A stretch of 64,000 nt of DNA, from the NCBI GenBank assembly GCA_016930085.1, contig JAFGHO010000016.1:31340-95339 (forward strand). Direction: 5' to 3'. Each line of letters starts with the position of its first letter. Positions within the stretch are counted from its first letter, which is position 1. The stretch comes from Spirochaetales bacterium (GTDB lineage Bacteria > Spirochaetota > Spirochaetia > SZUA-6 > JAFGRV01). Shown here piece after piece: positions 14,875-56,840 of the stretch. Position numbers and translations under genes: made by a program. The notes beneath the pieces are model-generated. The model made no database searches, was not told where the DNA came from, and worked only from the letters and a program-made list of their open reading frames with translations.

Positions 14875-16467
14875 TTACTGTCCGGCAGGCAATATCATAT
14901 AAAATGAAACACCCCTGCCATCGCTGTTTTTTACGTCAATACGCCCCCCGTATCCTTCGATAATCGCTTTGGCAAGCGAAAGCCCCAGACCCGTATGATC
15001 GGCCTTTTTCCCTACTCCCGGCCTGAAACTGAAATACCGGTTAAAAATACGGTGAATATTTTCTTCCGGTATCCCCGGCCCCTGATCGCTGATGATGACG
15101 GTCGCCTGCGAATCATTCCGTTCCAGTTCGAGACTGATCGTTCCTCCGGACGGAGAGAAACTCACCGCATTATCTAAAATATTTTCGAACACCTGCTGCA
15201 GGCGCTCAGGTGAAGCGGAGAGTGTCACCGGATGTTCGGGAATCGACAGATCGAAGACGACTTTGTTTGTCCTCAGCCGAAATCCCTCAACAATATGCGA
15301 AAGCAGGATCCCCACATCGAGTTCCCTGCATTCTTCCGCCTCGAGACCGGTATCGATCCTGCTTATCTCCCGCGCCCCGACCAGAAGCCGTTCCATCCTT
15401 CCGACATCCCGTAATGCCATTCTGAGAAAATGTTCCCTCTCTTTTTTATTGTCGACTTCCAGGGCAATGTCGATCGCGGACCGTATCGATGCAAGGGGGT
15501 TCTTGAACTCGTGAGAAAGGTCCGATGCGAACGATTCGATAAAACTCATATGTTTGACCAGACGCTTTGTCAGTTCTTCCAGCGACCTTGTCAGGTCCCC
15601 TATCTCGTCCATTCTTTTCGTGTGCGTAAACAGGCGGGTGAGTCTGCCCCTGCGATCGAGAATGGCCTCCGCCTCGTTTCTGAGTTTTTTAACCGGTCTG
15701 GCTATCGTGGCCGAAAGTATGAAACTCAAAATAACGGCGACAAAAATAGAACCGAGCGATATCTTGAAAATATCCAGCCTTACTTCATAAAGATTGCTGA
15801 GTATTTTATATGTCGATTGTGATACCAGAACGGCGCCGATGACTTTTCCGTTTTTCCACACAGGCAGGGCGCTGTAAAGTGTTACCGACCGCTGCCCGCC
15901 TGCCGATATCCGCCAGACCGCTTTATACCGCCCCATGAGTGCGGCCTGTACCTCCGGGCCCATAATCGGTTTATCTGCGGCATAGAACTGGGAATCTTCG
16001 ACAGCGGGCAGCGGCGGCTGAAAAAAACGGCGGTAAAGGCGAAAAGGCCAGGTCGCAATTAAATACAGCCAGTCGTCCTCATCCGTCGTCTCCGCCGCAC
16101 CGATCTCATCGCCGGCCGCTTCATCATCGGGACGGTCCGCTTCCGCCACGGTGATTTCTTCGCCTACCCTGCTTGAATCGGCAAGAAGAATGCCCTCTTT
16201 TGAGATAACCCGCAACCGCGCGTCCGTTCGCTTCTTGAGATGGAAGAGAATTTCTTCCGCCACCTCGGGCCCAAAGCCGTCCCGCTCGGAAAGTGAGGCG
16301 GCCAGAAGCCGGCCCTGCTGTACCATGGAATCTTCCTGGGCTTTCAGCATCTGTTTTTCATAAGTATCGAGAAAAAGGAAACCGGCGACGGGGAGAAAAA
16401 CGACGAGAATATTGAATCCGAGAAGACGAATCGAAATTCGCGAAAGAAAGCGGAGAAAACCCGACAT
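14875..16467 (-). CDS. Sensor histidine kinase (HAMP-HisKA-HATPase)
   Basis: Two TM segments flank a periplasmic region. The H-box is 'DLSHEFKNPLASI'. The N and G boxes are 'ENILDNAVSF' and 'DQGPGIP...GLGLSLAKAII'. The likely start is 'MSGFL' at 16467, 1 nt after the upstream RR stop. Confidence 0.8.
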   Translation of the reverse strand: MSGFLRFLSRISIRLLGFNILVVFLPVAGFLFLDTYEKQMLKAQEDSMVQQGRLLAASLSERDGFGPEVAEEILFHLKKRTDARLRVISKEGILLADSSRVGEEITVAEADRPDDEAAGDEIGAAETTDEDDWLYLIATWPFRLYRRFFQPPLPAVEDSQFYAADKPIMGPEVQAALMGRYKAVWRISAGGQRSVTLYSALPVWKNGKVIGAVLVSQSTYKILSNLYEVRLDIFKISLGSIFVAVILSFILSATIARPVKKLRNEAEAILDRRGRLTRLFTHTKRMDEIGDLTRSLEELTKRLVKHMSFIESFASDLSHEFKNPLASIRSAIDIALEVDNKKEREHFLRMALRDVGRMERLLVGAREISRIDTGLEAEECRELDVGILLSHIVEGFRLRTNKVVFDLSIPEHPVTLSASPERLQQVFENILDNAVSFSPSGGTISLELERNDSQATVIISDQGPGIPEENIHRIFNRYFSFRPGVGKKADHTGLGLSLAKAIIEGYGGRIDVKNSDGRGVSFYMILPAGQ

Positions 16468-16468
16468 A

Positions 16469-17182
16469 CTACTCCATCCTGTAGCGGTATCCCAGGCCGT
16501 ACACCGTTTCAATACAGGAAAAATCGTCGTCGACCTGGAAAAACTTCTGCCTGAGCCGTTTTATATGACTGTCGATCGTTCTGTCACTGACGAATGTATT
16601 GTGTGGATATGCCTCCCTCATCAGTTGTTCCCTGTTTTTGACATGACCCGGATATTTCACCAGCGACAGGAGAAGCATGAATTCGGTGACGGTAAGATTG
16701 ACCTTTATTCCTTTCCACGTCACGGTATAACACTGCATGTCAAGATCGAGTTCACCCAGCGTCAACAGATCCTTTTCGTCTTTCTTTTGTGTCTGGAAGA
16801 GCAGGCGGCGGAAAAGGACCTTGATCCGCATCATGAGTTCACGCATGGAAAAAGGCTTGCAGAGGTAATCGTCACCCCCGATCTGAAGCCCGAGAATCCG
16901 GTCGAACTCCTCGTCCTTTGATGTGAGAAATATAACAGGAAGTGTCTCGGAAATGTTTCGTATCTTTCTGCAGAGTTCAAGGCCGTCCATTCTCGGCATG
17001 ATGATATCCAGGACCACGAGATCAGGCATCTTATCCTTGAAAGCCTCCCACGCGACGAAGCCATCGCTATACGAGAGGGGTATATATCCCTCTTTTTTCA
17101 ATGCGTATGAGACGGTCTCCCTTATATTCTCCTCATCGTCGACAATCGCGACAAAGCGTTTTCGCGTTCCCGGATCTTCCAT
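16469..17182 (-). CDS. OmpR/PhoB-family response regulator
   Basis: The receiver is 'RFVAIVDDEENIRETV...LVVLDIIMPRMDGLEL'. The winged-helix trans_reg_C is 'VKNREQLMREAYP...RTIDSHIKRLRQKF...IETVYGLGYRY'. It is translationally coupled to the downstream kinase. Confidence 0.8.
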   Translation of the reverse strand: MEDPGTRKRFVAIVDDEENIRETVSYALKKEGYIPLSYSDGFVAWEAFKDKMPDLVVLDIIMPRMDGLELCRKIRNISETLPVIFLTSKDEEFDRILGLQIGGDDYLCKPFSMRELMMRIKVLFRRLLFQTQKKDEKDLLTLGELDLDMQCYTVTWKGIKVNLTVTEFMLLLSLVKYPGHVKNREQLMREAYPHNTFVSDRTIDSHIKRLRQKFFQVDDDFSCIETVYGLGYRYRME

Positions 17183-17399
17183 GAAAACACTATAGCATGT
17201 GAGAGAATACTGGTAAAGTAGAGACGGCAGGGCCAAAATTCCCGAATGCCTTATTTTTGCCACAATTCCTCCACATTTCAAATATAATTATAACCGATGC
17301 TCATTATGATTGTACTCGGTTATTCATGATGCGTTACGTTGAATTATTGAGGTAGTGTTGAAAACCTCAATCAGCCGTATTCAGAAGAAGGAAAAAAAT

Positions 17400-17507
17400 A
17401 TGATTATAGCAATGGCTATTCCGAGCGGTGTTTTCATGCTTCTTGGGTTTTTTGTTTTGATTATCATGGCGATCCTCATGTGGAATTCGCAGGAAGAAAA
17501 AAAGTAA
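17400..17507 (+). CDS. Putative 35-aa hydrophobic single-TM mini-protein
   Basis: An AGAAGGA RBS lies 6-7 nt upstream of the ATG. The product is MIIAMAIPSGVFMLLGFFVLIIMAILMWNSQEEKK, a hydrophobic helix with a charged C-terminal tail. It converges on the 3' end of the WYL regulator gene. Confidence 0.25.
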   Translation: MIIAMAIPSGVFMLLGFFVLIIMAILMWNSQEEKK

Positions 17508-17525
17508 GGGTATTTGGTTATTGAT

Positions 17526-17555
17526 TAAAAAGCGGAATATCTCAGACTATTCCGC
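17526..17555 (-). terminator. Rho-independent terminator downstream of the WYL regulator gene
   Basis: An 8-bp stem gcggaata/tattccgc is followed, on the minus strand, by a TTTTT run. Confidence 0.5.
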
Positions 17556-17590
17556 ACCTGAATGACACAAAAGCGGCTTCATGTGAGCTT

Positions 17591-18598
17591 TCAGACCGGC
17601 GGATAATGCTTCAGCATGCGCTGCACCTCTTCACCGATCTGCTCCGCAAGATACGACGGTTCGAGTATTTTTGCATGAGCTCCATAGGAAAGTACCCATT
17701 TTTTTACATCGAATATTCCCGAGGTGTGGAGAGAGAGAATGATCGAACCGTCCGGCTGCTCTTCGATTTTCTGCTCCGCTGCCCATTTTCTTTCCCTGAT
17801 ATAATGTGCTATTTCGGCGGAAAACCATACCCGCGCCGAAACGGGATCTCCGAATGTCAGAACATATGCGGTATCAAGGACTTCTTCCGGATCAAATCCC
17901 TGCGGATATTCAAAATGACTTTCCAATACGGCAAGTTTTCTGATCCGTTCGACAGAGAGGATGCTGATGGAATCGTATTTGACCACCCTGACAAAAACAT
18001 ACAATCCACCGCCGTGCTGAAAGAGCTTTAGCGGATCAATCTGAAACAATTTCGGTGTATCCGAAGAAAAAGAATGGTAGGTAACGATGCAGCGTTTATA
18101 CTGAACGATCGAGTCGGTGAGATCGTCCAGAATATCTTCCTTTCCCGAATAATCTTTTAATCCCTGGCTGAAGGGGATAAAAATATCGTCCAGCTTTGTG
18201 ATGGACTGCTGATTTCTCAGATTATCGGGAAGAAAAATATCGAGTTTGTTTTTGAGGGAAAGCAAATACTGTTCGAGTTTCGTTGTCTTGAAAATGCTTC
18301 CCCTGCTGAAAAGAAAGAAAAGAAGGATGATTTCTTCTTTCGTAAGCTGCAAATCGGCCAAACTCAAATTGGGGAGCTTCGAAAGATACTGTTCGTCCAG
18401 TTTCCATTTTTTTGCTATTCCGTCCTCTGTTTTTCCCTCTTTGAGGGGGAAATTGAGTTCCTGCAATGTATCCAGAAGCCGGTAGACAGATCTGCGGCTT
18501 GTTTGGAGTTGTTCCTGGAGTTCGGTAATCGTCGCGCCTTCCGGTTGAGTCAGTATATTGATCGCCTTGAAAAGTTTTATCAGGTTCTTCCCGTACAT
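17591..18598 (-). CDS. HTH-WYL-WCX transcriptional regulator (CapW/BrxR-like)
   Basis: The N-terminal HTH is 'ATITELQEQLQTSRRSVYRLLDTL'. The WYL core is 'KRCIVTYHSFSSDTPKLFQIDPLKLFQHGGGLYVFV...ISILSVERIRKLAVLE'. A C-terminal WCX-like block is 'VWFSAEIAHYI...WVLSYGAHAKILEPSYL'. The ORF extends to 18685 with a hydrophobic 29-aa extension, so the true start is uncertain. Confidence 0.65.
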   Translation of the reverse strand: MYGKNLIKLFKAINILTQPEGATITELQEQLQTSRRSVYRLLDTLQELNFPLKEGKTEDGIAKKWKLDEQYLSKLPNLSLADLQLTKEEIILLFFLFSRGSIFKTTKLEQYLLSLKNKLDIFLPDNLRNQQSITKLDDIFIPFSQGLKDYSGKEDILDDLTDSIVQYKRCIVTYHSFSSDTPKLFQIDPLKLFQHGGGLYVFVRVVKYDSISILSVERIRKLAVLESHFEYPQGFDPEEVLDTAYVLTFGDPVSARVWFSAEIAHYIRERKWAAEQKIEEQPDGSIILSLHTSGIFDVKKWVLSYGAHAKILEPSYLAEQIGEEVQRMLKHYPPV

Positions 18599-18739
18599 GG
18601 AGATAAGTATAGTAAAAAAAAGCGATTTGTAAAATAAGGAAAGGGACAAAGTTATACGAAAACAACTCCGGTCAACCTTTGCCATCCCGTTTCACGGCAT
18701 TGATAGAATTTCGTTCGCCGACGACGTTCATATTCAGCG

Positions 18740-19732
18740 TTATTTTACGATAAAAACCGGCCTTTTCATCCTGAAAATAGCCCTGTTTTCATAGGTTCCG
18801 GCAGGAACAAAATATCTTTTTATTTTCTCCGGGGTAAATGTCATGACATCGTCGGTAACATAGAAATTATCGGGTTCCGCGAATTTCCTCCCCAAATGAA
18901 ACAATGAATTGATCGTATCAGAGATTATCTCGCCGGTATCCTCGGTAAAATAGAGGAGATTACCGAGATGCAACGCGATTCTGAATGAAATAAAGTTTGG
19001 AAAGAGTGATTCTTCAACATCATGAATATATTTATTCAGCATTATCCTGAAACCGCAGAGGACTGAAAGGCAGTCGGACCCGTTAAATGGAAATAAAACG
19101 ACCCCGCCCACGCCCGACCATATCCATATTCTCCCGTCAAAGGGTGTAACGTTTCTTTCGATAAATTTTGCAAAGGTGGTAATCGCCCTTTTGAGGTTTT
19201 TTCTCCCGTATTTTTTTTCCATTTCATTTTCACCGTCGAACTCGATAAACATGATGGAAAACGCATATTCACGGCCGGATGTGATTCCTTTCCAGCCCTG
19301 CGGTGAGATGATATATCTTGATTTTTTCTTTGATTGCTCGGGTTTTTTCCGTTCGTCATAATCACGCCTGTATTGCCGTATGTATTGTATCACTTTCTGA
19401 AAACGCTTTGTCGTAAACGCGGTTTCTAAAGCGCTTTTCCCGATATAATCGACCGCGCCGTCTGAAATCAACTGTCCGTAATCTTTTACTTTCCCTTTTG
19501 TATCGATAATTCCAAAAAACACCCCTTCGCCTTTGGAGAGGTAGCGAATCTCCTTTTCATATTCGGGAAGTCCGGAAATATCGAGATATACCACAATCGG
19601 TTTTTTCTGAGTCGGTATCTTTTTTTTCATTACCTCGACGCTGAACGATGTCACTGTCAGCTTTGATCTCCGGGTGAAAGCTTCAAGACGCTTTATCAGT
19701 CTCGTATTGTCGGAAAAAATCAGCAGTTCCAT
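18740..19732 (-). CDS. Receiver (REC)-domain protein fused to class-III nucleotidyl cyclase homology domain
   Basis: The N-terminus is REC-like: 'LLIFSDN' (β1), 'IVVYLDISGLPEYEKEI' (phospho-Asp position) and 'DYIGKS' (conserved Lys). The C-terminal cyclase blocks are 'AFSIMFIEFDG', 'GRIWIWSGVGGVVLF' and 'FRIALHLGNLLY'. Confidence 0.55.
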   Translation of the reverse strand: MELLIFSDNTRLIKRLEAFTRRSKLTVTSFSVEVMKKKIPTQKKPIVVYLDISGLPEYEKEIRYLSKGEGVFFGIIDTKGKVKDYGQLISDGAVDYIGKSALETAFTTKRFQKVIQYIRQYRRDYDERKKPEQSKKKSRYIISPQGWKGITSGREYAFSIMFIEFDGENEMEKKYGRKNLKRAITTFAKFIERNVTPFDGRIWIWSGVGGVVLFPFNGSDCLSVLCGFRIMLNKYIHDVEESLFPNFISFRIALHLGNLLYFTEDTGEIISDTINSLFHLGRKFAEPDNFYVTDDVMTFTPEKIKRYFVPAGTYENRAIFRMKRPVFIVK

Positions 19733-19733
19733 T

Positions 19734-20654
19734 TTACGACTCCCACTTCAACGTGAATTGATATAGGTTCGAAGCCTTGTTTTTCGGGATCGGTTTAAAG
19801 AATTTTTCCAGTTTACGCCCGAGATCCTGATACACGCTCGGCGAAATGGTAAGGGAATCGGGTTCGGTATACTCGGAAACAAGTTCCTCGAGTTTTTGTA
19901 TCGTCTCATGTTTTATATTCCCCATATCATGATGAAACTGGCACGGCCCGGTGTGGACCGCCATTCTTATCGAAAGGGATTCATCAAGCCTGCATCTTAA
20001 TATGTTATAAAAAAGAAGGTCCAACAAAATGTCGATACCACTCAGGACCGCCATGACATTCTTGTTCTGGAAATAGAAAGCCCCCAGACCGCCGTCGCCT
20101 TCCCATCCCCATATACGGCCGTTACGCTTTTCCATGTTCTTTTTTGCCAGTTCACGTATATCCGAATATGTCCGGGAAATGATATCCATCGAATACCGGC
20201 GGACGAGTTCCGTATTGTTGACGATATCGATTGAAAGAAGTGAGAACTCGTAGCTTTTCCCTTCTTCAAGAATTCGCCAGCCTTTCGATACCTTCTCTCC
20301 CTTGTTCTCGACAAAGGTCCCGAGATCAGGATTATAATAGAGTCCCTGTGAAACGAGTTCCGAAAGGATTTGCGGCAATGCCTTGATCTGGATTTTTTTC
20401 CCCATAAATCCGTTCTGATAAACATCGATCAGCAGCGTGACAAACTGGATGAATATCTCTTCCTTGATTACGTCTTCGGTTATCTGCTGGGCGGCATGCA
20501 TGGGCGGAACCGGCATATTTTCAGGGTACCCCGTGCGTTCGTGAATATTATAGCTGGGGAATATCCGGCGGGTCAGCTTTACCATTTCCCGTGTGGACAT
20601 GGATTCATATAACGCCTTGATCATGAGCTGTGCGAGATTTCTGTTAGCCCTCAT
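19734..20654 (-). CDS. Class-III nucleotidyl cyclase homology protein with unknown N-terminal domain
   Basis: The C-terminal blocks are 'FSLLSIDIVNNTEL', 'GRIWGWEGDGGLGAF' and 'SIRMAVHTGPCQF'. They are paralogous to the downstream gene. Its stop is 1 nt from the next start, so the two form an operon. Confidence 0.55.
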   Translation of the reverse strand: MRANRNLAQLMIKALYESMSTREMVKLTRRIFPSYNIHERTGYPENMPVPPMHAAQQITEDVIKEEIFIQFVTLLIDVYQNGFMGKKIQIKALPQILSELVSQGLYYNPDLGTFVENKGEKVSKGWRILEEGKSYEFSLLSIDIVNNTELVRRYSMDIISRTYSDIRELAKKNMEKRNGRIWGWEGDGGLGAFYFQNKNVMAVLSGIDILLDLLFYNILRCRLDESLSIRMAVHTGPCQFHHDMGNIKHETIQKLEELVSEYTEPDSLTISPSVYQDLGRKLEKFFKPIPKNKASNLYQFTLKWES

Positions 20655-20872
20655 TCATCGGTCCTTTCGCCTTGATTATCGACACCTCTTATAATAGGAA
20701 AAACCAACTTTTTTCCTGTTCCCTTCGTGTTCTATCACATTCGGCCGACATTGTCATTATCATAAAATCGGGATATATTGCCATTGCATATGAACATCAG
20801 CTTCTTTTTGAATTATATAGGTATGACGGTCTTTTTCAACCGCCAGTTTATCCCGAACAGGAGAAAAGAACA

Positions 20873-22066
20873 ATGAATACACTCTCCGCCGATATTACCA
20901 GGGAAATACTCAAAAGCAATATCCGCAGGGAATACAGGACATTGAGTCCGTATGCAGAAAAAAGTACCAAAGGGGTGCGGCTGCACGGGGAAAGGGAAAT
21001 AATTCCCGACAAGCTGAATATTCGTCCGGTTTTTTTTCATGATGCCGACAGGATCATTCATTCCCTGGCATATACTCGATATATCGATAAAACACAGGTT
21101 TTTTCCCTGTTTGAAAACGATCACATCACTCACCGCGGCCTCCACGTTCAGTTTGTTTCCAAAATAGCACGGGTCATCGGGAGGTTTCTCAGGCTTAACG
21201 AGGACCTTATCGAGGCGATCGCACTCGGACATGATCTGGGTCATGTCCCCTACGGCCATGAGGGGGAACGATTTTTGAACGCTATCGCGCAGAAAAGGGG
21301 AGCCGGTTGTTTTTGCCACAACGCACAGAGTGTCAGGTGCCTCATGGAACTCGAAAATCACGGAAGAGGATGCAACCTGACCCTTCAGGTTCTCGATGGT
21401 ATCCTTTCCCATTATGGCGAGAAAGTGGAAAAAAGCTATACACCGGGTCCGGCCAAGACCTGGGACGCCTTCCTTGAGGAATACCGCAAGTGCTTCATGA
21501 TTGAAGATTATTATAAAACCTTGCGGCCCATGACCATGGAAGGCAGTGTCGTCCGTATAGCGGATATAATCGCCTATATCGGGAGGGATATCGAAGATGC
21601 GATCGAGGTAGGGCTTGTGAAGCGGGAGGATATTCCGGAACCGGTGACAAAAATACTCGGTAATACCAACAGGGAAATCATCAATAACCTCATCATTGAT
21701 ATTATCAATGAAAGCTATGAGAAAAAGTCGATCTCGTTTTCGACCGTTACGTATACTGCCCTGCACAAACTCCTCGTCTGGAATTACAGGCATATCTACA
21801 ATAACCCGAAAAAGACCAATCAGAACGACAAGATCGAATATATGATGAATTTTCTTTTTGAAAAATACATCAATGATCTGCGGATACAAAACAGGCGTTC
21901 GGCCCTTTTCACCCTCTTTCTCGACAATATGAATGCGGATTATGTAAAAAAAACAAAAAACGAACGTATCGTCTTAGATTTTATCGCGGGCATGACCGAT
22001 GATTTTTTCAATAACGAGTTCAGAAAATACATCATGCCGGTCTCCTACGGGCTGACCGTCGATTAG
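20873..22066 (+). CDS. dGTPase-family HD-domain triphosphohydrolase
   Basis: An AGGAG RBS precedes the ATG at 20873. The N-terminus is 'RPVFFHDADRIIHSLAYTRYIDKTQVF'. The HD motif is 'HITHRGLHVQFV...ALGHDLGHVPYGHEGE'. Both are typical of Dgt-like enzymes. Confidence 0.7.
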   Translation: MNTLSADITREILKSNIRREYRTLSPYAEKSTKGVRLHGEREIIPDKLNIRPVFFHDADRIIHSLAYTRYIDKTQVFSLFENDHITHRGLHVQFVSKIARVIGRFLRLNEDLIEAIALGHDLGHVPYGHEGERFLNAIAQKRGAGCFCHNAQSVRCLMELENHGRGCNLTLQVLDGILSHYGEKVEKSYTPGPAKTWDAFLEEYRKCFMIEDYYKTLRPMTMEGSVVRIADIIAYIGRDIEDAIEVGLVKREDIPEPVTKILGNTNREIINNLIIDIINESYEKKSISFSTVTYTALHKLLVWNYRHIYNNPKKTNQNDKIEYMMNFLFEKYINDLRIQNRRSALFTLFLDNMNADYVKKTKNERIVLDFIAGMTDDFFNNEFRKYIMPVSYGLTVD

Positions 22067-22174: not shown

Positions 22175-22510
22175 TTACTGAAGCTGTTCGATCGCCTCTT
22201 GGAGTGTCGCGGTGATGGGCAGAATATTGTTGAGTCTGCTCAATACGAACAGCTTCTTGACCGTTTCCTGGGGATGTGCATATTTCAAACCGATCGCCTG
22301 AGCTTTTGATTTCTGCCAGAGTGTGATGAGTGTTCCCAATCCGGTACTATCCATATAGGGTACCTTTTCGAGGTTGATGATGATATTCTTTTTTTTTGCG
22401 TCGATAAGCTCCATTATCACCTGTCTGAGTGAGACGGCATTGAGGTAATCCATTTCCCCTTCCATATCGACGATGACACAATTGCCTTCAATTCGTTTCT
22501 TGATTTCCAT
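22175..22510 (-). CDS. STAS-domain anti-sigma-factor antagonist (SpoIIAA-like)
   Basis: A 111-aa protein. 'VPYMDSTGLGTLITL' carries the conserved phosphorylatable Ser/Thr region. Confidence 0.7.
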   Translation of the reverse strand: MEIKKRIEGNCVIVDMEGEMDYLNAVSLRQVIMELIDAKKKNIIINLEKVPYMDSTGLGTLITLWQKSKAQAIGLKYAHPQETVKKLFVLSRLNNILPITATLQEAIEQLQ

Positions 22511-22686
22511 TTATCCCCATCTTTCCGTTTACTATAGATAGTATTGCGTCGTTTTGTCCATAGTTTTGATCAAATTTTCGTTTTCATCCCATTTTATTCA
22601 GGTATCGCACAAAACCATGGATAATGAGGGCGACAATCGGATGTTACCACATAACGGATTTATTTTCTACCTTAAATTATATCGTT

Positions 22687-23061
22687 TCAGCCGATCTCCT
22701 CAAGGATGCCGTTCACGGCGTCAAGGAGATCCCCTTTTTTGAATGGCTTGAACAGAACACGATGCGCCCCCAGCTGTTCGATCAGTATCTTGAATGCGTC
22801 CGAATCGGGAGACACCTTTCCGGTGATAACGATTATTTTTTTGTCTTTCAGTTCACTCTTCATCTCGAGTAACACGTCGACTCCCCCCTTACCGGGCATG
22901 ACGACATCGGTAATAAGAAGGTCTATTTTTTTATCGCGGATGATCTCACAGCCTTTGAGACCATTTTCCGCCGTATAGACCGTATGACCTTCTTTCTGCA
23001 AAAAATGACTGACACGCTCCCGTACGTACTCAATATCATCGATAACAAGAATTGTTGCCAT
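22687..23061 (-). CDS. Single-domain CheY-like response regulator
   Basis: An AAGGAGG RBS precedes the start. The receiver is 'MATILVIDDIEYVRE...IDLLITDVVMPGKGG...KPF'. Confidence 0.75.
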   Translation of the reverse strand: MATILVIDDIEYVRERVSHFLQKEGHTVYTAENGLKGCEIIRDKKIDLLITDVVMPGKGGVDVLLEMKSELKDKKIIVITGKVSPDSDAFKILIEQLGAHRVLFKPFKKGDLLDAVNGILEEIG

Positions 23062-23358
23062 GCCGTCCTCCTTATTAATAGAGTGGATTCCGTTACTTCG
23101 GGAGAAAAAACTCTTTATAAAAACTCTCGATATACGCCGGACCTGAATCCGGTAATATATCAAGCGGTCTGTTTTACCCTTTTCCCGGTACACCATCAAT
23201 TCTATACTATTTTTCGGAAAAATACCATATAAAACAAAGACGAAAGTACCTTGGGGGGGTACGGAAACAAAAAACTTGACTATGGCGAATTTTCAATGTA
23301 TATTTTCATCGAGAGACGAATAATCGCAAAAAAAACATTATAAAAAAGGAAAGAAGCT

Positions 23359-24472: not shown

Positions 24473-25312
24473 CTACTTCTTTTTCCGTCTGGGGTCGTTT
24501 TTATTCGCTTTCGGAGCGGGGGAATCAATTTCCTCCTCCTTTTGTCCGGTTGTCGTAATATCGGACTCATATAGCTTTTCTGCGCTCACGATATACAACG
24601 TATCTCCGATTGCCGCTATCCCCGCCACGTCACTCCACATGTCACTGATTTTGGCGTAATCGCCGCTGCTCGTCGTCGCTTCGTAAAGGACCTCGGCACT
24701 TACCATATACAGCTTGTTTCCTATAGAAGTCATTCCCCTCACATCCGCCCATGTGTCACTCAGCTGTTTGTAGGCGCCGTCGGTTTTCGAAACCTCATAG
24801 AGAATTTCACCGCTTACAGCGTACAGTTTCCCCGCCGCGGAGGCCATACCGGTGACATTACTCCATGTGTCGCTGAGTTTTTTATACGCTCCATTTACTT
24901 TATTTACTTCATAGAGTATCTCTTCACTGACGATATACAGCTTGCCGTCAAGTGATGTCATTCCGGTAACATCACGCCAGGTGTCGCTGAGTTTTTTATA
25001 CGCCCCATTTGCTTTATTTGCTTCATAGAGTATCTCTTCACTGACGATATACAGCTTGCCGTCAAGGGACGTCATTCCGGTAACCTCACGCCAGGTATCG
25101 CTGAGTTTTTTATACGCTCCATTAACCTTGTTCACTTCATAAAGTATGTCTTCACTGACGATATACAGCTTACCGTCGAGTGCGGTAATACCGGTAACAT
25201 CACGCCAGGTATCACTCAGCTCCTTGTAGTCACCTGAAAAAACGGTACCGGAAATAAAAATGATCATATAGACCGCCATCGTAAAACAACCGATAACCGG
25301 GATTCTCCTCAT
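24473..25312 (-). CDS. Secreted protein built of six 37-aa tandem repeats (propeller-like)
   Basis: A signal anchor precedes 6x 'DTWRDVTGMTSLDGKLYIVSEEILYEVNKVNGAYKKLS'. The C-terminus is Lys/Pro-rich. Confidence 0.5.
   Translation of the reverse strand: MRRIPVIGCFTMAVYMIIFISGTVFSGDYKELSDTWRDVTGITALDGKLYIVSEDILYEVNKVNGAYKKLSDTWREVTGMTSLDGKLYIVSEEILYEANKANGAYKKLSDTWRDVTGMTSLDGKLYIVSEEILYEVNKVNGAYKKLSDTWSNVTGMASAAGKLYAVSGEILYEVSKTDGAYKQLSDTWADVRGMTSIGNKLYMVSAEVLYEATTSSGDYAKISDMWSDVAGIAAIGDTLYIVSAEKLYESDITTTGQKEEEIDSPAPKANKNDPRRKKK
24590..25260. repeat. Tandem ~111-bp coding repeats (about 6 copies; two adjacent copies nearly identical)
   Basis: The ~111-bp units are near-identical at about 24.94-25.05 and 25.05-25.16 kb. 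Flanking copies are more divergent. Confidence 0.6.
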
Positions 25313-45665: not shown

Positions 45666-46712
45666 ATGGCGGAATTGCAATTGCCGGTGAATACATCGAT
45701 ACAGATCAAGCATGCAGAAATCGTAAAAGGGCCCACACAAATCGCTTTCGATATCACGAACAAATGCAATTTTAGGTGCCTTCACTGTTTTAATCGAAGC
45801 AGCGAGAACGACCGGATGAACGATGAATTAACCGACAAACAGGTAAAATATTTTATAAAAGATATAATCAAAATGAAACCGTTTAATATCTGTCTGTGCG
45901 GGGGAGAACCCCTGATCAGGTTTCATTTGATATGCGACATCTCCTCGATGCTCAAGGAGAACGACATCATGGTTTCCATGGTGACGAACGGATACCTGCT
46001 GACGGAGGAAAAGGCGGAAAAATTGTTCGCTTCCGGCGTACGCCGCGTCCAGGTAAGCCTCGATGGGGCCTGTCCGGAAACCCATGAGCGATTGAGAGTG
46101 AAAAAGGGAAGTTTTAATAAAGCGATCGAGGCGATAAAAATATTCAAGACTGCGGGATTCGACGATGTCGGTGTGGCGTTCACCCCGACCAATTTCAATT
46201 GTCACGAGGCAAGCGATGTGATCGCTTTATGCCGGAACCTCGGTGTCAGGGATTTCAGGGTACAGCCATTGATGTGTATCGGCCGGGCGAAGACGAACAT
46301 GGGAAATATACTTCCTTCGAATTACCAATACCGCAACCTCGTCAAGACACTCAATGAATCAAAGACCGAATATACAGACATTAAGATCGAATGGGGCGAT
46401 CCGATCGACCATTTGATTCGCTTCCGTACCGTCACACAACACCTGAACGTCTTTCTCGTCGTTCAGGCGAACGGAGATATAGCGGCTTCCCCGTATTTGC
46501 CGATAACGATCGGCAATATTAAAAAACACTCGATTCTGAAATACTGGAAAAAGGGATTGCCGAAAGTCTGGCAGTTCGAACCGATAAAAAAAATAGCGAA
46601 TAACATCAAATGCATGTCCGATTTCTCCAAAGAACACAAGGATTTGCCGATTGTTTGGTTCGATCAGAATATTCGATACGATGTTATCGACGACAAACTT
46701 ATCAGTTCATAA
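45666..46712 (+). CDS. Radical SAM peptide-modifying enzyme (partial SPASM/twitch-like C-terminal region)
   Basis: The radical SAM motifs are 'FDITNKCNFRCLHCF' (CxxxCxxC) and 'CLCGGEPL'. 'SLDGACPETHERL' is also present. The C-terminus has only scattered Cys (NFNCHE, IALCRN, LMCIG, IKCMS), so no full seven-Cys SPASM. Confidence 0.8.
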   Translation: MAELQLPVNTSIQIKHAEIVKGPTQIAFDITNKCNFRCLHCFNRSSENDRMNDELTDKQVKYFIKDIIKMKPFNICLCGGEPLIRFHLICDISSMLKENDIMVSMVTNGYLLTEEKAEKLFASGVRRVQVSLDGACPETHERLRVKKGSFNKAIEAIKIFKTAGFDDVGVAFTPTNFNCHEASDVIALCRNLGVRDFRVQPLMCIGRAKTNMGNILPSNYQYRNLVKTLNESKTEYTDIKIEWGDPIDHLIRFRTVTQHLNVFLVVQANGDIAASPYLPITIGNIKKHSILKYWKKGLPKVWQFEPIKKIANNIKCMSDFSKEHKDLPIVWFDQNIRYDVIDDKLISS

Positions 46713-46744
46713 TATTTTAGTTATAATAAAATGGAGATGTAATC

Positions 46745-47653
46745 ATGAAAAAAGGAACACCGCACTTTAAAAGTGAAAATCTGCTTTACATGAGGGAGGA
46801 AAACAAAGGTTGTGTCACACTGTTATCCAAATTCCACCCCGAACTGAGAGAATTGGTGATAAACAAAACAACGAAAGAAATCATCGATTTATGCGACGGT
46901 CAAAACACGATCGAAGACATCATTTCAAAAATGAAAGCGAAATATCCGATGGTCCAGTCGGCCATCATTACAAATGACGTACACAAAATTCTCGCTAGTA
47001 CCTCCAGATTGATGTTGATTCAATGGGAACACGAGAACCCGTACCTTTTTCTGAGAGAAGAAATCATAGACGATACGTACGGATTGAGAATCGGCGTCGA
47101 AGACGATTTGTTGAAGATAAAGAAATTTATTATGGACAGCGATATTCTTACAAATGGGAACGACGTTTCTTCCTCGCATTTTTATTATAAAAATGTTTAT
47201 GTCAACACATATGAATACGACGAAGTTTTATTGCGGCAGAAAATATTCAATTTTAACGAGGAGTTCTTCTTTTTAACAAAAAACGGGGAAATAGAAGGAT
47301 TATTATCCTTTCAGCTGCCCATTCCCCCGTCAAAGGCCGCCGTATTGAAGATGTGCATTTGTGCAAAAGAATATTTCAGGGAATTGTTTCGCTATGCATC
47401 GGACAATCTCCCGCACATATCCGTTTCGCAGCTTTCGAAAATTAAATTTATTATCAGTTCGAAGGAGCCTGTTGACGACTCCCTGGTTGAATTGCTAATA
47501 TCTGAAGGATTCGGGGACGAGGGATTGTTCAGGGACGAACTGGGTTTTGATCATGATATTTCCGTCATGGGCTTGAGCTACGATCCCGTCCTTATCGATG
47601 AGATCGAAAAAAACAGGAAAGCGGCTACCGCTATCGGCGGACTGGCGCAGTAG
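46745..47653 (+). CDS. PqqD-like RiPP recognition element (RRE) fused to a ~200-aa domain of unknown function
   Basis: The N-terminal block 'VTLLSKFHPELRELVINKTTKEIIDLCDGQNTIEDIISKMKAKYP...ITNDVHKIL' matches the PqqD/RRE consensus ('ln.ta..iw.l.dG..t..ei...l...y......DV..fl'). Confidence 0.5.
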   Translation: MKKGTPHFKSENLLYMREENKGCVTLLSKFHPELRELVINKTTKEIIDLCDGQNTIEDIISKMKAKYPMVQSAIITNDVHKILASTSRLMLIQWEHENPYLFLREEIIDDTYGLRIGVEDDLLKIKKFIMDSDILTNGNDVSSSHFYYKNVYVNTYEYDEVLLRQKIFNFNEEFFFLTKNGEIEGLLSFQLPIPPSKAAVLKMCICAKEYFRELFRYASDNLPHISVSQLSKIKFIISSKEPVDDSLVELLISEGFGDEGLFRDELGFDHDISVMGLSYDPVLIDEIEKNRKAATAIGGLAQ

Positions 47654-47721
47654 AAACGGGACCGGCGCACAATCGGACGGATTTACCGAAATATCACAAG
47701 GGGAGTGACAGGAATCGAACC

Positions 47722-48486
47722 ATGTATCGACGTTATATGTTAAACGTATCGTTTTTCGTTTTGAGTTTCTTTTTCTCGCATTGTTTCATTTTCGCGGAAC
47801 CGGCCCTGGGGAAAATCGTTTCGGATATAAAAAACAGTAAAAAGGAAATGAGCGGCAAAATCGCCGATATAACGATCATACAGGAAAGCGAAATATATTC
47901 GGAGAAGGGAACGATGCACCTCCGGTCGACGATTTACAAAAAGTCAGATAAATTCCGGGTCGAGAATTCCTGTGAGTTCGCCGGCGCAATTACCGAAGAA
48001 ACAATCATCTATGACGGCCGCGATTACTGGAAAATAGGAAGCGGCCTGAAACAGAAAATAAACAGGGACGAAATGCTGGAGAAGAACAAAACGATTGCCT
48101 TGCAGAAAAACTGGTGGGAAATAATTTCGGAGGAATCACGGCTTGAACAAGCCGACGATGAGGTAACGAACTGCTATATCATCCTGAGTGATAACAACAA
48201 TGAAACATATCGGTGCTGGGTTAACAGGGACAATCTGCTTCTCGAAAAAATCGAAATCATGTTTTCCGAAGACGACAGCATCATTATCGTCTACGGCGGT
48301 TTTGAATCAGTTGTCGACGGGCACGAAATGGCGACGAAAATCGAGCTGTACAGAAACGGTATATTGGACTCGAGAATTTCAATCAAAAAGATCGACATAA
48401 ATACCGGCGTCTCCGACGAGTTATTCGATCCGGACAGGGAAAAAAGTTTCGACCTGAATCGTATATTAAAGGATCTTTTTCAATAA
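47722..48486 (+). CDS. Secreted protein, LolA-like / unknown function
   Basis: A signal peptide 'MYRRYMLNVSFFVLSFFFSHCFIFA' is present. The length and composition suggest a beta-rich lipoprotein-carrier-like fold. The fold assignment is weak. Confidence 0.35.
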   Translation: MYRRYMLNVSFFVLSFFFSHCFIFAEPALGKIVSDIKNSKKEMSGKIADITIIQESEIYSEKGTMHLRSTIYKKSDKFRVENSCEFAGAITEETIIYDGRDYWKIGSGLKQKINRDEMLEKNKTIALQKNWWEIISEESRLEQADDEVTNCYIILSDNNNETYRCWVNRDNLLLEKIEIMFSEDDSIIIVYGGFESVVDGHEMATKIELYRNGILDSRISIKKIDINTGVSDELFDPDREKSFDLNRILKDLFQ

Positions 48487-48563
48487 ATCGGTATAGCGAA
48501 TACCCGAACAATAAACCATTGTTTATATGATCGATAAAAAATTACAATCAGAGAGGATGTTAT

Positions 48564-49055
48564 ATGAGATTATCCAGAATAATCGGATTCCTGAACAGGA
48601 GAAAGGAAAATGAAATGACGGGGGCCGGATTTATCGCCGGAACCGTCCTGGGAATTATCATCGGGCTGTATATCTTTCTTTCGGTACTTATTCTGAAAGA
48701 GGTCACATTAAACCAGCTCGAACTCTCACTCAAGCCGTACGAACGGCTTATCAGCATGGACCCGGTTACCATTTATTATATTACCCTCATCGCGACCCCG
48801 CTTATCGTGGTCTTCATTCATATGATAATCGGTGTGGTGATCGGGATCGGTGTCAATAAACTGAAAAAACCGTCCGCCTGGAAGATCTTGCTCGGCGGGG
48901 CCGCTCTGGGGACGCTTTTCGGCTTTATCACGAGTGCCCCGGCCCCGAGGATTGTTACGTTTATAGTCTGTTTGGCGGCGTGGATTGTTTTTTCCCTTGT
49001 TTTTCTCCTGACCGTTCGTTTATCGAACAGGGAACCGGAGGATAAAACGGCCTGA
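48564..49055 (+). CDS. Small 4-TM membrane protein (candidate immunity protein)
   Basis: Four hydrophobic helices are present. The RBS is 'gagagga'. No catalytic motifs were found. Confidence 0.4.
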   Translation: MRLSRIIGFLNRRKENEMTGAGFIAGTVLGIIIGLYIFLSVLILKEVTLNQLELSLKPYERLISMDPVTIYYITLIATPLIVVFIHMIIGVVIGIGVNKLKKPSAWKILLGGAALGTLFGFITSAPAPRIVTFIVCLAAWIVFSLVFLLTVRLSNREPEDKTA

Positions 49056-49172
49056 TGCCCTGAAGGGAAAAGACAGAGAGATAATGAAAAGCGGCGGGGC
49101 GTATTTCCCGGCGACACCCGAGTCGATTGCGGTCTCCGCGGAAATGCGGATGGAAATATAACTCATGGAAAA

Positions 49173-50948
49173 ATGGAAGAACCGATGAATAAAACTATAC
49201 TGGCGTATAAGGATTTAAAACGGTTACTCGGAATTTTTACGACCTATATTAAAGGGAAAAAGGGGTTATTGTTCCTCGGCGTATTTCTGGGGATAATAAG
49301 CCGGTTATGTGCGTTATCCATCCCCTTGTTTTCGAAATTTATTATCGACACCGTCATCTTCAAAGGTTTTGACAGTTACCTCAACATAACGATACTCTCC
49401 GGGATCGTCATTCTCATTCTTCTTGCGGGGTCATCGATTCTGTCGAATTATCTTCTCTTTAAGGTAAACGGTCTGGGCGGGATCAAGTTCAAGTATTCTT
49501 TTTTCAGAAAACTGCAATATGCGCCATTTACCTTTTTTACCACTATTCAAAAAGGCGCGATCGCCCACAGAATATTGACGGACACCGAACGGATTATCGG
49601 TTTCTGGACGCAGACCGTCGCGACATTGCCGCTGATCGTTATCCTGGGCGCGGGCGGGGCGATAATGCTTCATTACAATCCCGTTCTCTCCTACTTTATC
49701 TTTAGTATTATTTTGCTTCAAATCCTTATCATCGTCGTCTTCAAGGGCCCGATCATGCGGTCCTCATTTTCAATCAAGGAAAACATGGAAAAGCTCACTT
49801 CCTATACCGTGGAGTTTTTTACAAAAATAGAACTGGTGAGAACCCATTCCACCGAAAAAAGCGAACAAAAGAAATTTCTGGGTTCAGTACGGAAATTGTT
49901 CCGGGCGGCATTCAGAAACTTCATGCTCAACAAGGGATATAACAACATCATCGCCTTTCTTTCCTATCTGTGGATCTTCGTCGTGCTCTGGTACGGCGGC
50001 ACACAGATACTGGCGGGTAACATGACAATAGGGACGCTTTCCGCGTTTTTACTCCTTGTCAATATCCTCAACACTCCCATTTTCATGCTGACCGAACTGG
50101 TCCTTTCATTTCAACAAATACGAACCAGCCTTTACCGGTACGAGGAATTCGCAAGGGTCGGAAGATATCTGCCGCCACCTTCCGGCGGCAGGCCCCTGAA
50201 ACCATACAAACCCCAGGAAGGCAGGATCGAATTGAAAGGCGTATCGTTCGGCTACAATGACCATTACGTTCTCAGAAACATCAATGAAGTCATCGAACCG
50301 AATTCCATAACTGCCCTGGTCGGCAGGACCGGCGCAGGTAAATCCACCTTTTGCCGGCTACTGATTAGACTGTTCGATCCGCAATCGGGCTCCATCTATC
50401 TGGACAACAGGGACATCAGGGAAATCAAAATACCTTCTTTAAGAAAATCGATTCATCTCTCTCTGCAGAACAACCATGTGATGAACGGCACACTCTGGGA
50501 AAATCTGACATACGGTACCGGTCATGTCGATAAAAAGGATGTCCTTCTGGCAATGAAAAAAGCGGGAATCGATTTTCATTATAAAATGCCGGCCGGATTC
50601 GACACGTTGATCGGTGTTCACGGATTGAATCTGTCAGGCGGGGAATGCCAGCGGATCGCCATAGCGAGGGCATTGCTTTTAAATCCGAAGGTTTTCATAT
50701 TCGACGAAACGACGGCATATATCGACAACAGGACGGAAGAAAAGATCAAGGATGTATTATGCGAATTGAAACGATCGGGCACCGTTATTCTCATCACGCA
50801 CCGCAGCTCGACGCTGGATGTCGTCGATAATGTCCTGTTATTCGATAATGGAACGATAACGGAATCCGCACCCTCGCATGTTCTGAAACGGGACAGGGGA
50901 AGCGAGTTTTTTAAATCTTTTTATTCAAAAGGAGGCACCCCGGAATGA
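49173..50948 (+). CDS. ABC transporter, fused permease/ATPase (peptide/bacteriocin exporter type; no fused C39)
   Basis: Six N-terminal TM helices precede Walker A 'GRTGAGKST', the signature 'LSGGECQRIAIARAL' and Walker B 'IFIFDETTAYID'. Confidence 0.85.
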   Translation: MEEPMNKTILAYKDLKRLLGIFTTYIKGKKGLLFLGVFLGIISRLCALSIPLFSKFIIDTVIFKGFDSYLNITILSGIVILILLAGSSILSNYLLFKVNGLGGIKFKYSFFRKLQYAPFTFFTTIQKGAIAHRILTDTERIIGFWTQTVATLPLIVILGAGGAIMLHYNPVLSYFIFSIILLQILIIVVFKGPIMRSSFSIKENMEKLTSYTVEFFTKIELVRTHSTEKSEQKKFLGSVRKLFRAAFRNFMLNKGYNNIIAFLSYLWIFVVLWYGGTQILAGNMTIGTLSAFLLLVNILNTPIFMLTELVLSFQQIRTSLYRYEEFARVGRYLPPPSGGRPLKPYKPQEGRIELKGVSFGYNDHYVLRNINEVIEPNSITALVGRTGAGKSTFCRLLIRLFDPQSGSIYLDNRDIREIKIPSLRKSIHLSLQNNHVMNGTLWENLTYGTGHVDKKDVLLAMKKAGIDFHYKMPAGFDTLIGVHGLNLSGGECQRIAIARALLLNPKVFIFDETTAYIDNRTEEKIKDVLCELKRSGTVILITHRSSTLDVVDNVLLFDNGTITESAPSHVLKRDRGSEFFKSFYSKGGTPE

Positions 50949-53883: not shown

Positions 53884-54327
53884 TTACAGAAGCACCACAC
53901 CCGGAAAAATCAGATGGATAACCGCGACCGACATACCGGTTATCCCTATCAGTACATGGTACTTCTTGATGGTCGATCTTATTTTTCCGGTATCTTGTTT
54001 AACAATCTCCCCTTCCACTTCTTTATCCTTTTTTGTAAACACGGCGAGCAGCAGGCTTCCGCCTATTGCACAACCCGTCAGTGCGGGGAGCAGGTCTTCC
54101 AGAATAAAAATCCCTCCCGGTTTGATAAACACGAAAAACTGAAGAATCCCGACAGCCAGTGCCGTGATCCCTAATACGGTTTGTATACCCTTGTTGACCA
54201 AAATTCTCCTTATCGGATTAAGCAGCTTAATATCGGTTTCTATATTTCTGAACATGAGAGCCAATCCCCCCAGGAATAGCGTTAGAATGGAAATAAAATA
54301 TAATTGCAGCATGTTTGACTCCTCCAC
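53884..54327 (-). CDS. Hypothetical 4-TM membrane protein
   Basis: Hydrophobic helices throughout. No motifs. Confidence 0.4.
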   Translation of the reverse strand: MEESNMLQLYFISILTLFLGGLALMFRNIETDIKLLNPIRRILVNKGIQTVLGITALAVGILQFFVFIKPGGIFILEDLLPALTGCAIGGSLLLAVFTKKDKEVEGEIVKQDTGKIRSTIKKYHVLIGITGMSVAVIHLIFPGVVLL

Positions 54328-54538
54328 TTTATATTAAAATACCTATTTGTTATGGCTATATACCGTATTCTTATTTTTTAATAGTTATAATGACACATAT
54401 CCTCTTTTTACTGCTTTTTTTCACTTCTGCGGCTCCACGGGATTTTGCCGCCCGTTCTCTTTTTATATTGATTTTTTTATCCGGAATCAATAATCCGCTT
54501 GTCTAAAAATTATCCAGGGTGTAATATGATACGCTGTC

Positions 54539-55249
54539 ATGCCGTATAGTATTTTAATTGTGGATGATGATAAAGATTTCAGAGTCGAGTTCCGTGATAT
54601 ACTGGAAGAAGAATATGATGTATATGAAGCAGCAAGCGGAGAAAAGGCTATTGAAATCATAAAAAAACCGAATATTGTCGATCTCGCCATTCTGGATGTT
54701 AAAATGCCGGGAATACAGGGAACAGAGGTTTTAAAACAATTAAAGCAACTGGTACCGGACTTGATAATCATAATTGTTACCGGTTATGGTTCAAAGGATG
54801 TCATAATTGAATCCTTAAGAAGGCATGCCGATGATTTTCTGGAAAAACCTTTGAAAATAGAAACGGCGCTGCAAAGAATCAAACAGCTTTTATACAACAA
54901 ACAATGTGAAGTAAAAGGCGTCATTGAAAAATTAAAGCATTTTATCGAAAAAAATTTTCACAAGAAAATAAGTCTAAAGGATGCTTCAAACGTTGTCTGT
55001 TTGAGTCCCAAATATATCTCAAAAATATTTAAAGACGAGGTCGGGATTGGATTCAATGAATATAAACTCAGGTTAAAAATGGAGAGGGCAAAAGAATTAC
55101 TGGGTTTGCATACGTACAATATCAATGAGATTGCCGGTAAAATAGGATATCTGAATATCGAATCCTTTGCAAGGATATTTAAACACCTGACAGGTGTTAC
55201 TCCCTCTGAATATAGACAGCTTTTATTTCATGGAGAAAAACATGAATAA
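54539..55249 (+). CDS. Response regulator with AraC-type HTH output
   Basis: The receiver is 'ILIVDDDKDFRVEF...LAILDVKMPGIQG'. The C-terminal AraC HTH is 'LKDASNVVCLSPKYISKIFKDEVG ... IAGKIGYLNIESFARIFKHLTGVTPSEYR'. Confidence 0.8.
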   Translation: MPYSILIVDDDKDFRVEFRDILEEEYDVYEAASGEKAIEIIKKPNIVDLAILDVKMPGIQGTEVLKQLKQLVPDLIIIIVTGYGSKDVIIESLRRHADDFLEKPLKIETALQRIKQLLYNKQCEVKGVIEKLKHFIEKNFHKKISLKDASNVVCLSPKYISKIFKDEVGIGFNEYKLRLKMERAKELLGLHTYNINEIAGKIGYLNIESFARIFKHLTGVTPSEYRQLLFHGEKHE

Positions 55250-56840
55250 ATTGTTAAAAACCATATTTAGTAAAAACCGGTATCATCCCGACGAATGTGA
55301 TGTGATATTCAATGCTTTTACCGATCCCGTCATTGTCTATAATGCTTTAGGATGTATTATAAAAGCAAACAAGGCAGCAGAAGATTTTTTACAATTCAAT
55401 CCGATAGGATTACATACCATCGGACTTGCCGAAATTCCCGCATCCGGTTTATCGACCGGGAAACCGGATGCGGTCGAGACTCTTTTATCAAAGGCTTTAA
55501 AAGGAGAAATCGGCAAAGATGTATCGTGTCAATTTACGGATAAAAACGGAAATAAAAGGTTTTGCAGCTGTTCAGCCGCGCCAATCCTCGATCGTACCGT
55601 TGTAGCCGGAATTATCCTTGTTTGGCATGACATTACAGAAATAACAGAAAAAGAAAAACAATTGGAAATAAACAATAAAAAGCTGGAAAACCTGGTTAGC
55701 GAAATAAATGAAAAGCAAAAAGTATCGGATAAACAGATAATAAACGATAAGAAAGAAATTGATACAAAAGATTCACAGATAATGGTTTCAAATAAACTGC
55801 TGGAAATAATATTTTCCAATACTCACTTTCTGATTGCTTACTTATCCACGGACTTTACTTTTATCCAGGTGAATGATGCTTATGCAAGGGCATTTAATCG
55901 GTCGCCTGATTTTTTTGCGGGAAAAAATCATTTTGATTTATTTCCCAACGAAGAAAACAAGGCTGTCTTCTCTCACGTTGTAAAATCGGGAGTTTCCTAT
56001 ATAACATATGTAAAGCCGTTTTTTCATCCCGACAAATCGGAATCCGATGCTACCTATTGGGATTGGAGTCTTCAGCCTATAAAAAACAATAATAAAGTTG
56101 AAGGAATCATTTTAGTCCTCATCGATGTGACCAGAAGGAAAAAAGCGGAAGAAGATTTATTTAATGCAAAAAGATTATCGGATATCGGAACACTGGCGGC
56201 GACGGTGGCCCATGAACTCCGCAATCCCCTTGCGGTCATTCAGGCAGCTATTTATAATATCAAGAGAAAAAGTCGGAATAGCGATATTGAGAAACATATA
56301 GAAAATATCAACGCAAAAGTCGAAGAGAGTGAACAGATTATCAATAATCTGCTTGGTTATTCGAAGTTTAAAATTCCTCAAAAGACGGACGTTTCAATTT
56401 ATAATTTTTTAAATGATCTGTTTGATGACATCCAGGGCAAAATGACTAAAGACACTATTATCATCAACAGAAAATACGAATCCCTAAAAGATACGATTAT
56501 TCATATCGATCCCGTCCAAATTCGTGAAGTACTCAATAATATAGTGAATAATGCATATCAAGCCATACCGCAGGTTAACGGCCGTATTGAAATTCAGGGG
56601 AATCTCTCAGGTAACAATCGATTGAATTTATACATTACGGATAACGGAAACGGAATAGAAAATGAAGATTTGGAAAAAATATTTAATCCCTTTTTTACAA
56701 ATAAGTCCAAGGGCACGGGATTGGGGCTAACCATCTGTAAAGAGTTGATCAAACTGCATAATGGAAATATAGAAATACTTAGTCAAAAGGGAGAGGGCAC
56801 TATTGTGAGGATTTCCCTTCCTCTAAACGTGATACCATGA
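55242..56840 (+). CDS. Cytoplasmic PAS-domain sensor histidine kinase
   Basis: Two PAS-like regions and a coiled-coil precede the H-box 'ATVAHELRNPLAVI'. The N/G boxes are 'NNIVNNAYQAI' and 'DNGNGIE...GTGLGLTICKELI'. The start MNKLLKT follows a GGAGAAAAAC RBS and overlaps the upstream RR's last codons. Confidence 0.8.
   Translation: MNKLLKTIFSKNRYHPDECDVIFNAFTDPVIVYNALGCIIKANKAAEDFLQFNPIGLHTIGLAEIPASGLSTGKPDAVETLLSKALKGEIGKDVSCQFTDKNGNKRFCSCSAAPILDRTVVAGIILVWHDITEITEKEKQLEINNKKLENLVSEINEKQKVSDKQIINDKKEIDTKDSQIMVSNKLLEIIFSNTHFLIAYLSTDFTFIQVNDAYARAFNRSPDFFAGKNHFDLFPNEENKAVFSHVVKSGVSYITYVKPFFHPDKSESDATYWDWSLQPIKNNNKVEGIILVLIDVTRRKKAEEDLFNAKRLSDIGTLAATVAHELRNPLAVIQAAIYNIKRKSRNSDIEKHIENINAKVEESEQIINNLLGYSKFKIPQKTDVSIYNFLNDLFDDIQGKMTKDTIIINRKYESLKDTIIHIDPVQIREVLNNIVNNAYQAIPQVNGRIEIQGNLSGNNRLNLYITDNGNGIENEDLEKIFNPFFTNKSKGTGLGLTICKELIKLHNGNIEILSQKGEGTIVRISLPLNVIP

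Follow-up and report, generated by a model that had tools for sequence, protein, structure and literature searches.

A conserved gene pair of uncultured Spirochaetota that probably encodes an asymmetric two-subunit class III nucleotidyl cyclase

Class III nucleotidyl cyclases form their active sites at the interface of a head-to-tail dimer, with a pair of metal-binding Asp residues supplied by one chain and the rest of the site by the other, as in the C1 and C2 domains of adenylyl cyclase (AC) and the alpha and beta subunits of soluble guanylyl cyclase (sGC). The contribution of the second chain consists of the transition-state Asn/Arg pair, the base-contacting residues and the gamma-phosphate Lys. 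The bacterial enzymes homodimerize and have two productive centres, and asymmetric heterodimers such as AC C1/C2 and sGC have been treated as a eukaryotic development (PMC9552081); a natural split heterodimer in bacteria would thus be an unusual variant. Searches of the full-text literature yielded no account of a naturally occurring class III cyclase in bacteria that is a heterodimer encoded by two genes; as coverage of that literature was incomplete, absence is not proven. Here we describe two adjacent genes, C and B, in a stretch of 64,000 nucleotides (the window; positions 31,340–95,339 of contig JAFGHO010000016.1, assembly GCA_016930085.1) from a metagenome-assembled genome (MAG) entered as 'Spirochaetales bacterium' (P0094). 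In the bacterial homodimers, namely 3mr7 from Silicibacter/Ruegeria pomeroyi, Ma1120, Cya2, CyaC, CyaB and Rv1900c, all catalytic residues lie in one chain and two equivalent sites are formed (PMC9552081), whereas in C and B they are split between two paralogous chains. We consider it probable that C-B is a conserved spirochaete operon for an asymmetric two-subunit class III cyclase that serves ordinary second-messenger signalling.

An earlier, sequence-only reading of this DNA had listed four open reading frames (ORFs) at 17282–22066, and all four were present at its coordinates. Gene C (19734–20654, minus strand) encodes a 306-aa protein, the metal-binding 'C1-like' subunit of the proposed cyclase, in which a helical, family-specific N-terminal domain (residues 1–128; 20271–20654) precedes a class III cyclase-homology domain (residues ~129–306; 19737–20270) containing Asp143 (20226–20228) and Asp187 (20094–20096). 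Gene B (18740–19732, same strand) encodes the 330-aa 'C2-like' subunit, with a receiver-like domain bearing Asp51 (residues 1 to ~125; 19358–19732) followed by a cyclase-homology domain (residues ~145–330; 18743–19300) containing Asn275 (18908–18910), His279 (18896–18898) and Arg316; its metal positions are occupied by Glu164 and Val208. The single nucleotide between the stop codon of C and the start codon of B, as first reported from the sequence, was confirmed, the junction reading ...GAGTCG TAA A ATG GAA..., and a GGGAG Shine-Dalgarno-like motif is found 5' of the start codon of B. From the TAA-A-ATG junction together with this motif, we conclude that C and B are translationally coupled.

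Both proteins are cyclase homologues, though very divergent ones. Their C-terminal ~166 aa are homologous to each other (BLASTP identity 28 %, E 9e-26; hhalign probability 99.7 %, E 2.6e-27), and the shared blocks on which the sequence-only reading had relied were located, as DGRIWIWSGVGG and FRIALHLG in B and as NGRIWGWEGDGG and IRMAVHTG in C. Searches with the individual sequences recovered little. Scans of B and C against Pfam, NCBIfam and PADLOC gave nearly nothing, the sole result being a weak PycC match for C (E 2.8e-7); B had no match to the PADLOC PycC models, and in single-sequence searches of the PDB with B and C the cyclases were non-significant (E 0.2–0.35). A profile of 60 members of the C family matched the PDB cyclases 3mr7 (9e-8) and Ma1120 (1.6e-5) and the cUMP synthase 7r65. 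AlphaFold2 models built from the B and C family alignments were confident, with pLDDT values of 89.7 and 90.2, and both proteins have the palm-type beta-alpha-beta-beta-alpha-beta fold of the cyclases. The N-terminal 128 aa of C had no match in Pfam or the PDB. When 1.84 billion representatives were searched exhaustively with phmmer, 74 matches were returned, and since every full-length one measured 305–326 aa, this domain exists only in the C architecture.

To compare the catalytic positions, the cyclase domains of 79 C-B pairs were aligned to 3mr7, with the register checked against RhGC and Cya2, and the comparison was extended to the gamma-phosphate Lys position. Both metal-binding Asp residues were found in C in 79/79 pairs, while B had Glu at the first position in 70/79 and Phe, Tyr or Leu at the second in 72/79. 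The beta4 Arg was common to both, being present in all 79 C proteins and in 64 of the 79 B proteins. The remaining positions had the reverse distribution. At the transition-state Asn, B retained Asn in 78/79 and C had Arg or Lys in 66/79; the transition-state Arg was His in 77 of the B proteins and variable in C; and at the gamma-phosphate Lys position B had Arg or Lys in 66/79, with Asn or Ser in 52/79 of the C proteins. Five canonical positions are thus divided between C and B across the 79 pairs in the complementary manner of a C1/C2-type heterodimer. Because the Asp pair is found only in C and the remaining set only in B, a complete site would require a C-B heterodimer.

It had been proposed from the sequence that the pair forms a head-to-tail heterodimer with one possibly degenerate subunit. 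The heterodimer is indeed most likely, given complementary residues over 79 species, but neither subunit is simply degenerate. Each lacks what the other keeps, which would leave one composite and one dead site. Of the two cyclase-homology domains in which the catalytic Asp residues were to be sought, that of C has both, but that of B has Glu at the first and Phe/Tyr/Val at the second position. We therefore propose, on the strength of these alignments, that C and B are the two subunits of an obligately heterodimeric class III nucleotidyl cyclase. C would supply Asp143 and Asp187, and B would supply Asn275, His279 in place of the Arg and Arg316 in place of the Lys. Of the two pockets in the predicted dimer, one would be a competent composite site and the other, its pseudo-symmetric counterpart, would be dead; the output of the dimer would be a cyclic nucleotide used as a second messenger in ordinary cell signalling.

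The residues expected to select the base were unlike those of characterized enzymes. The position of the base-selecting Lys/Glu is Met or Ile in B and Ser, Asn or Gly in C, and it is flanked by invariant Trp residues in a W-x-W hairpin common to both families; the Asp/Cys position is variable. The canonical specifying residues, Lys/Asp for ATP and Glu/Cys for GTP, were found in neither B nor C. Since W-x-W takes the place of the base-selecting residues, the substrate cannot be predicted from them.

A competing explanation is that C and B act separately, with C as a homodimeric cyclase of low efficiency and B as a receiver-fused but inactive paralogue whose role is confined to regulating or titrating C or lies elsewhere. 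C does retain the metal-binding residues and the beta4 Arg, and class III cyclases normally homodimerize (PMC9552081). However, a C homodimer would lack the Asn, the Arg/His and the gamma-phosphate Lys in both of its sites, and precisely these are conserved in B, where they would serve no purpose were it inactive. In addition, the two genes are translationally coupled and occur together in every locus whose contig extends far enough. We regard separate action as improbable.

The distribution of the pair was determined by a scan of one genome per species, in which relatives of C were found in 340 genomes; 80 loci retained from these were inspected, all of them in Spirochaetota MAGs. The B and C families are confined to uncultured Spirochaetota, the C family comprising 93 clusters and the B family 41. 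They are newly defined here, and their members, mostly labelled 'hypothetical', occur in uncultured spirochaete genomes by the hundred. Wherever the contig does not end first, C is followed directly on the same strand by a B orthologue, with a gap mostly between −3 and +5 nt (79 pairs). This order of C followed by B holds over deep divergence, the mean identity between C proteins being 49 % in the cyclase domain (79 loci). The surrounding genes vary by clade and are ordinary ones, including those for ribosomal proteins S6/S18/L9, SSB, DnaB and NUDIX proteins, methylmalonyl-CoA mutase, phosphoenolpyruvate carboxykinase (PEPCK), acetate kinase and RNase H, and elsewhere a TrkA-type channel and LigT. 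When ORF families were counted out to 7 kb around the ~80 loci, none but B and C themselves proved to be universally linked. The C-B pair is inherited vertically across the phylum.

One MAG, DATKUF01 (isolate SMAG_U14100), contains two separate C-B pairs (L069 and L078). The tblastn alignments of B are longer, at 366–375 aa, in these two loci and in L074, L079 and L084, where the B proteins may carry insertions. The longer B proteins and the presence of two pairs in one genome suggest further duplication and diversification in some lineages.

A solo relative was also found that is distant from the pair (P0092 at L088:2181–3122, with a P0093-like counterpart in L089). It is a 313-aa protein with a C-type N-terminal domain, and it has a peptidase M48 gene and an acetyltransferase-like gene for neighbours, with no B-type gene alongside. 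The single chain of P0092/P0093 carries both Asp residues, the Arg, the Asn, the His and an EGR motif. As this complete set includes His, the His at the Arg position belongs to the full catalytic set of the clade. The solo protein is probably a homodimer-type ancestral form of the split pair, and it supports a duplication followed by complementary loss. The origin of the split is apparently independent of the eukaryotic cyclases, from a solo P0092-type ancestor.

These data also bear on the main rival to a working cyclase, in which the pair is a non-catalytic cyclase-fold complex, that is, a pseudoenzyme that binds an NTP or other ligand and relays its presence through the receiver-like and N-terminal domains, with no cyclic nucleotide being made. 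We consider this unlikely. At an overall identity of ~40–49 %, the Asp residues of C (79/79) and the Asn (78/79) and His (77/79) of B have been held, as expected of a working site, and the solo relative retains the complete residue set.

If C-B is a cyclase, its regulatory inputs are likely to act through the N-terminal domain of C and the receiver-like domain of B. Among 79 members, the receiver-like domain of B has the acceptor Asp51 in 74 and Lys or Arg at position 99 in 64. In 29–32 of the ~80 loci, a protein of ~700–720 aa with a histidine-kinase-like HATPase_c domain is encoded 13–36 nt downstream of B, as at L041:9928–12090 (plus strand, 720 aa). Transmembrane segments are numerous in this protein, which also has a weak PDZ-like match and carries the HATPase_c domain at its C-terminus. 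The location of this gene behind B in about one-third of the relatives suggests an input by phosphorylation or by protein–protein contact, and its product may act as the sensor for that domain of B, or its position may merely reflect inherited synteny. A response regulator of OmpR type and a kinase encoded downstream in the window (14875–17281) were considered as partners of B and rejected, as the two are a standard pair in their own right and synteny with them is lacking in the relatives.

Several observations weigh against a regulated heterodimeric cyclase. In a Pfam scan, PF00211 had no match to the window B or C at E<0.1; the C orthologue in L041 reached 20.0 bits against a cut-off of 21.9. 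With His in place of the transition-state Arg and with non-canonical base residues, neither activity nor substrate can be inferred from precedent. In the receiver-like domain, most members have no conserved beta1 acidic pair (Asp8 in 28/79), and an invariant Asp77 stands where Thr or Ser is expected, so that phosphorylation of B is doubtful and the domain may be an atypical receiver or a pseudo-receiver. The HATPase_c protein has an H-box consensus of GIAHRLNxPVN, in which the His is present in about half of the members (it is Asn in L041), and its gene is absent from the window. Its adjacency to B also co-occurs with a syntenic RNase H gene and a gene for a 522-aa protein in one set of genomes, so the link may be one of inherited synteny rather than functional coupling.

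Compared with mammalian AC C1/C2 and sGC alpha/beta, the predicted C-B enzyme is alike in its division of labour, with C as 'C1' and B as 'C2' and with one competent and one dead site. It differs in being bacterial and encoded by two separate, translationally coupled genes, in having His for the transition-state Arg and W-x-W base positions for Lys/Asp or Glu/Cys, and in its regulatory domains. We put forward as a tentative extension, held with less confidence than the operon reading itself, that a class III cyclase encoded by two genes, and obligately heterodimeric, arose independently in Spirochaetota, with a C1/C2-like split of labour, Asn-His for Asn-Arg and a W-x-W base pocket; such an enzyme may make a non-canonical cyclic nucleotide, or may sense a ligand in its dead pocket in the way that forskolin acts on the mammalian cyclase. 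If the pair is what we propose, it would be a natural bacterial case of duplication followed by complementary degeneration in class III cyclases and a simple model of how asymmetric cyclases arise in this way. It would also be a tractable system for studying the roles of a degenerate pocket and of an Asn-His catalytic pair.

The genes flanking the pair had prompted a different proposal, according to which the dGTPase gene, C, B and the WYL gene together make up a WYL-controlled module for signalling-based defence against phages. Some defence operons are regulated by HTH-WYL-WCX proteins. Gene A (17591–18598, minus strand) was confirmed as encoding a regulator of this architecture (Pfam WCX 2.4e-22, WYL 2e-9, HTH_11 4.7e-5), of YafY type; its longest ORF extends to 18685, and the probable start is Met30 at 18598. 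Its homologues measure ~331–335 aa and belong to a family found in Spirochaetales and Deltaproteobacteria that the sources name YafY-type. Gene D, on the plus strand at 20870–22066 and divergent from C, encodes a dGTPase-family HD triphosphohydrolase (Pfam HD and HD_assoc), its longest ORF starting at 20672. In favour of a defence role, PADLOC gave generic WYL and dGTPase matches for A and D in addition to the weak PycC match for C, and the GC content of the region is slightly low.

The evidence from the relatives argues strongly against this proposal. No WYL gene was found beside the C-B pair in any of the 80 related loci, and in the MAG JAFGQK01 a WYL orthologue of 71 % identity lies on a different contig from the C-B pair, beside unrelated genes; other members of the family occur in assorted contexts. 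The suggestion that the regulator controls a defence operon was accordingly not borne out. CapW, BrxR and YafY-type regulators share the domain architecture of the gene at 17591–18598, but the linkage of WYL to the cyclase pair is unique to the window genome among those sampled, and contexts vary. A dGTPase gene was near C-B in 2/80 loci, namely L086, a relative of 84 % identity, and L008, at a distance of 3.5 kb. Against NCBIfam, D passed the subfamily model TIGR01353 (162.6 bits, cut-off 152.35) and had its best match to the dGTPase equivalog PRK01286.1-2 (289 bits, below its cut-off of 393), and it reached 128.5 bits with antiphage_dGTPase (NF041026), the cut-off of which is 400. Beyond the dGTPase gene, both the window (22175–23199, minus strand) and L086 (1196–2417) have genes for a STAS protein of anti-sigma antagonist type and a single-domain receiver (REC). 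The order REC-STAS-dGTPase-C-B is thus common to the two, and this synteny says nothing specific about defence.

The other features expected of such a module were also lacking. As the sequence-only reading had remarked, the window encodes no effector activated by cyclic nucleotide monophosphates (TIR or transmembrane), and none was present among the recurrent neighbours in the ~80 loci. Searches of phage and plasmid collections gave no homologue of C, scans of the neighbouring ORFs against Pfam gave no integrase or transposase domain, no tRNA was found in the window and no operator-like motif was shared by the B-WYL and C-dGTPase spacers. That reading had further attributed a paired arrangement to some Pycsar PycC enzymes, a statement that gained no support from the literature searched; relative to Pycsar PycC, C-B has no adjacent TIR, transmembrane or other effector and no defence-island context, and it is vertically inherited. 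With housekeeping or signalling contexts free of WYL in 80/80 loci, an outcome that the sequence-only reading had itself named as refuting, the combination of WYL gene, dGTPase gene and AT-rich block does not amount to a defence module, and we consider a defence function very improbable. In the window genome, the WYL and dGTPase genes lie beside the pair by chance. A WYL regulator and a dGTPase beside a cyclase homologue are no sign of a defence system here, and caution is warranted in reading such neighbourhoods.

The 'AT-rich block' that had been described for the four genes is real but mild: its GC content is 0.436, and the window averages 0.479 (sd 0.038). It is unremarkable in that 9 % of windows of the same size have a lower value, and low GC extends past the four genes to ~26 kb.

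Consensus scans located candidate transcription signals around the genes. A promoter-like site upstream of C (20812–20839, minus strand; TTGAAA-16-TATAAT, 11/12 consensus matches) lies inside the 215-bp divergent spacer, and a terminator-like hairpin followed by a T-run (17532–17555, minus strand) lies just downstream of the WYL stop codon. The spacer between C and the dGTPase gene also contains an 8-bp perfect inverted repeat, AGGAAAAA-N6-TTTTTCCT, at 20696–20717, ~40 nt upstream of the start of C. This repeat is not kept in L086. The blocks of the spacer that are retained there are GATTTT..ATAAT.ACAATGT and TGTCGATAATCA. Scans of the window for tRNAs and Rfam families gave no match.

Other parts of the window were noted in passing. 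The segment at 45666–50948 (GC 0.41–0.45) encodes a radical SAM enzyme, a PqqD-like domain protein, an unassigned 254-aa protein and an ABC exporter, and looks like a maturation and export cluster for a peptide of the ribosomally synthesized and post-translationally modified (RiPP) type. The lowest GC content, 0.34–0.37 against a mean of 0.48, was found at 54000–58000, after which it rises abruptly to 0.55 at ~58 kb; this segment contains genes for an AraC-type response regulator (54539–55249) and a double-PAS histidine kinase (55194–56840) and makes a stronger candidate for foreign DNA than the four-gene region does. Finally, a small beta-propeller is the probable structure of a 279-aa protein encoded at 24473–25312 on the minus strand, which has a signal-like N-terminus, about six tandem repeats of ~37 aa (...YKKLSDTWRDVTGMTSLDGKLYIVSEEILYE...) and weak Kelch-like matches.

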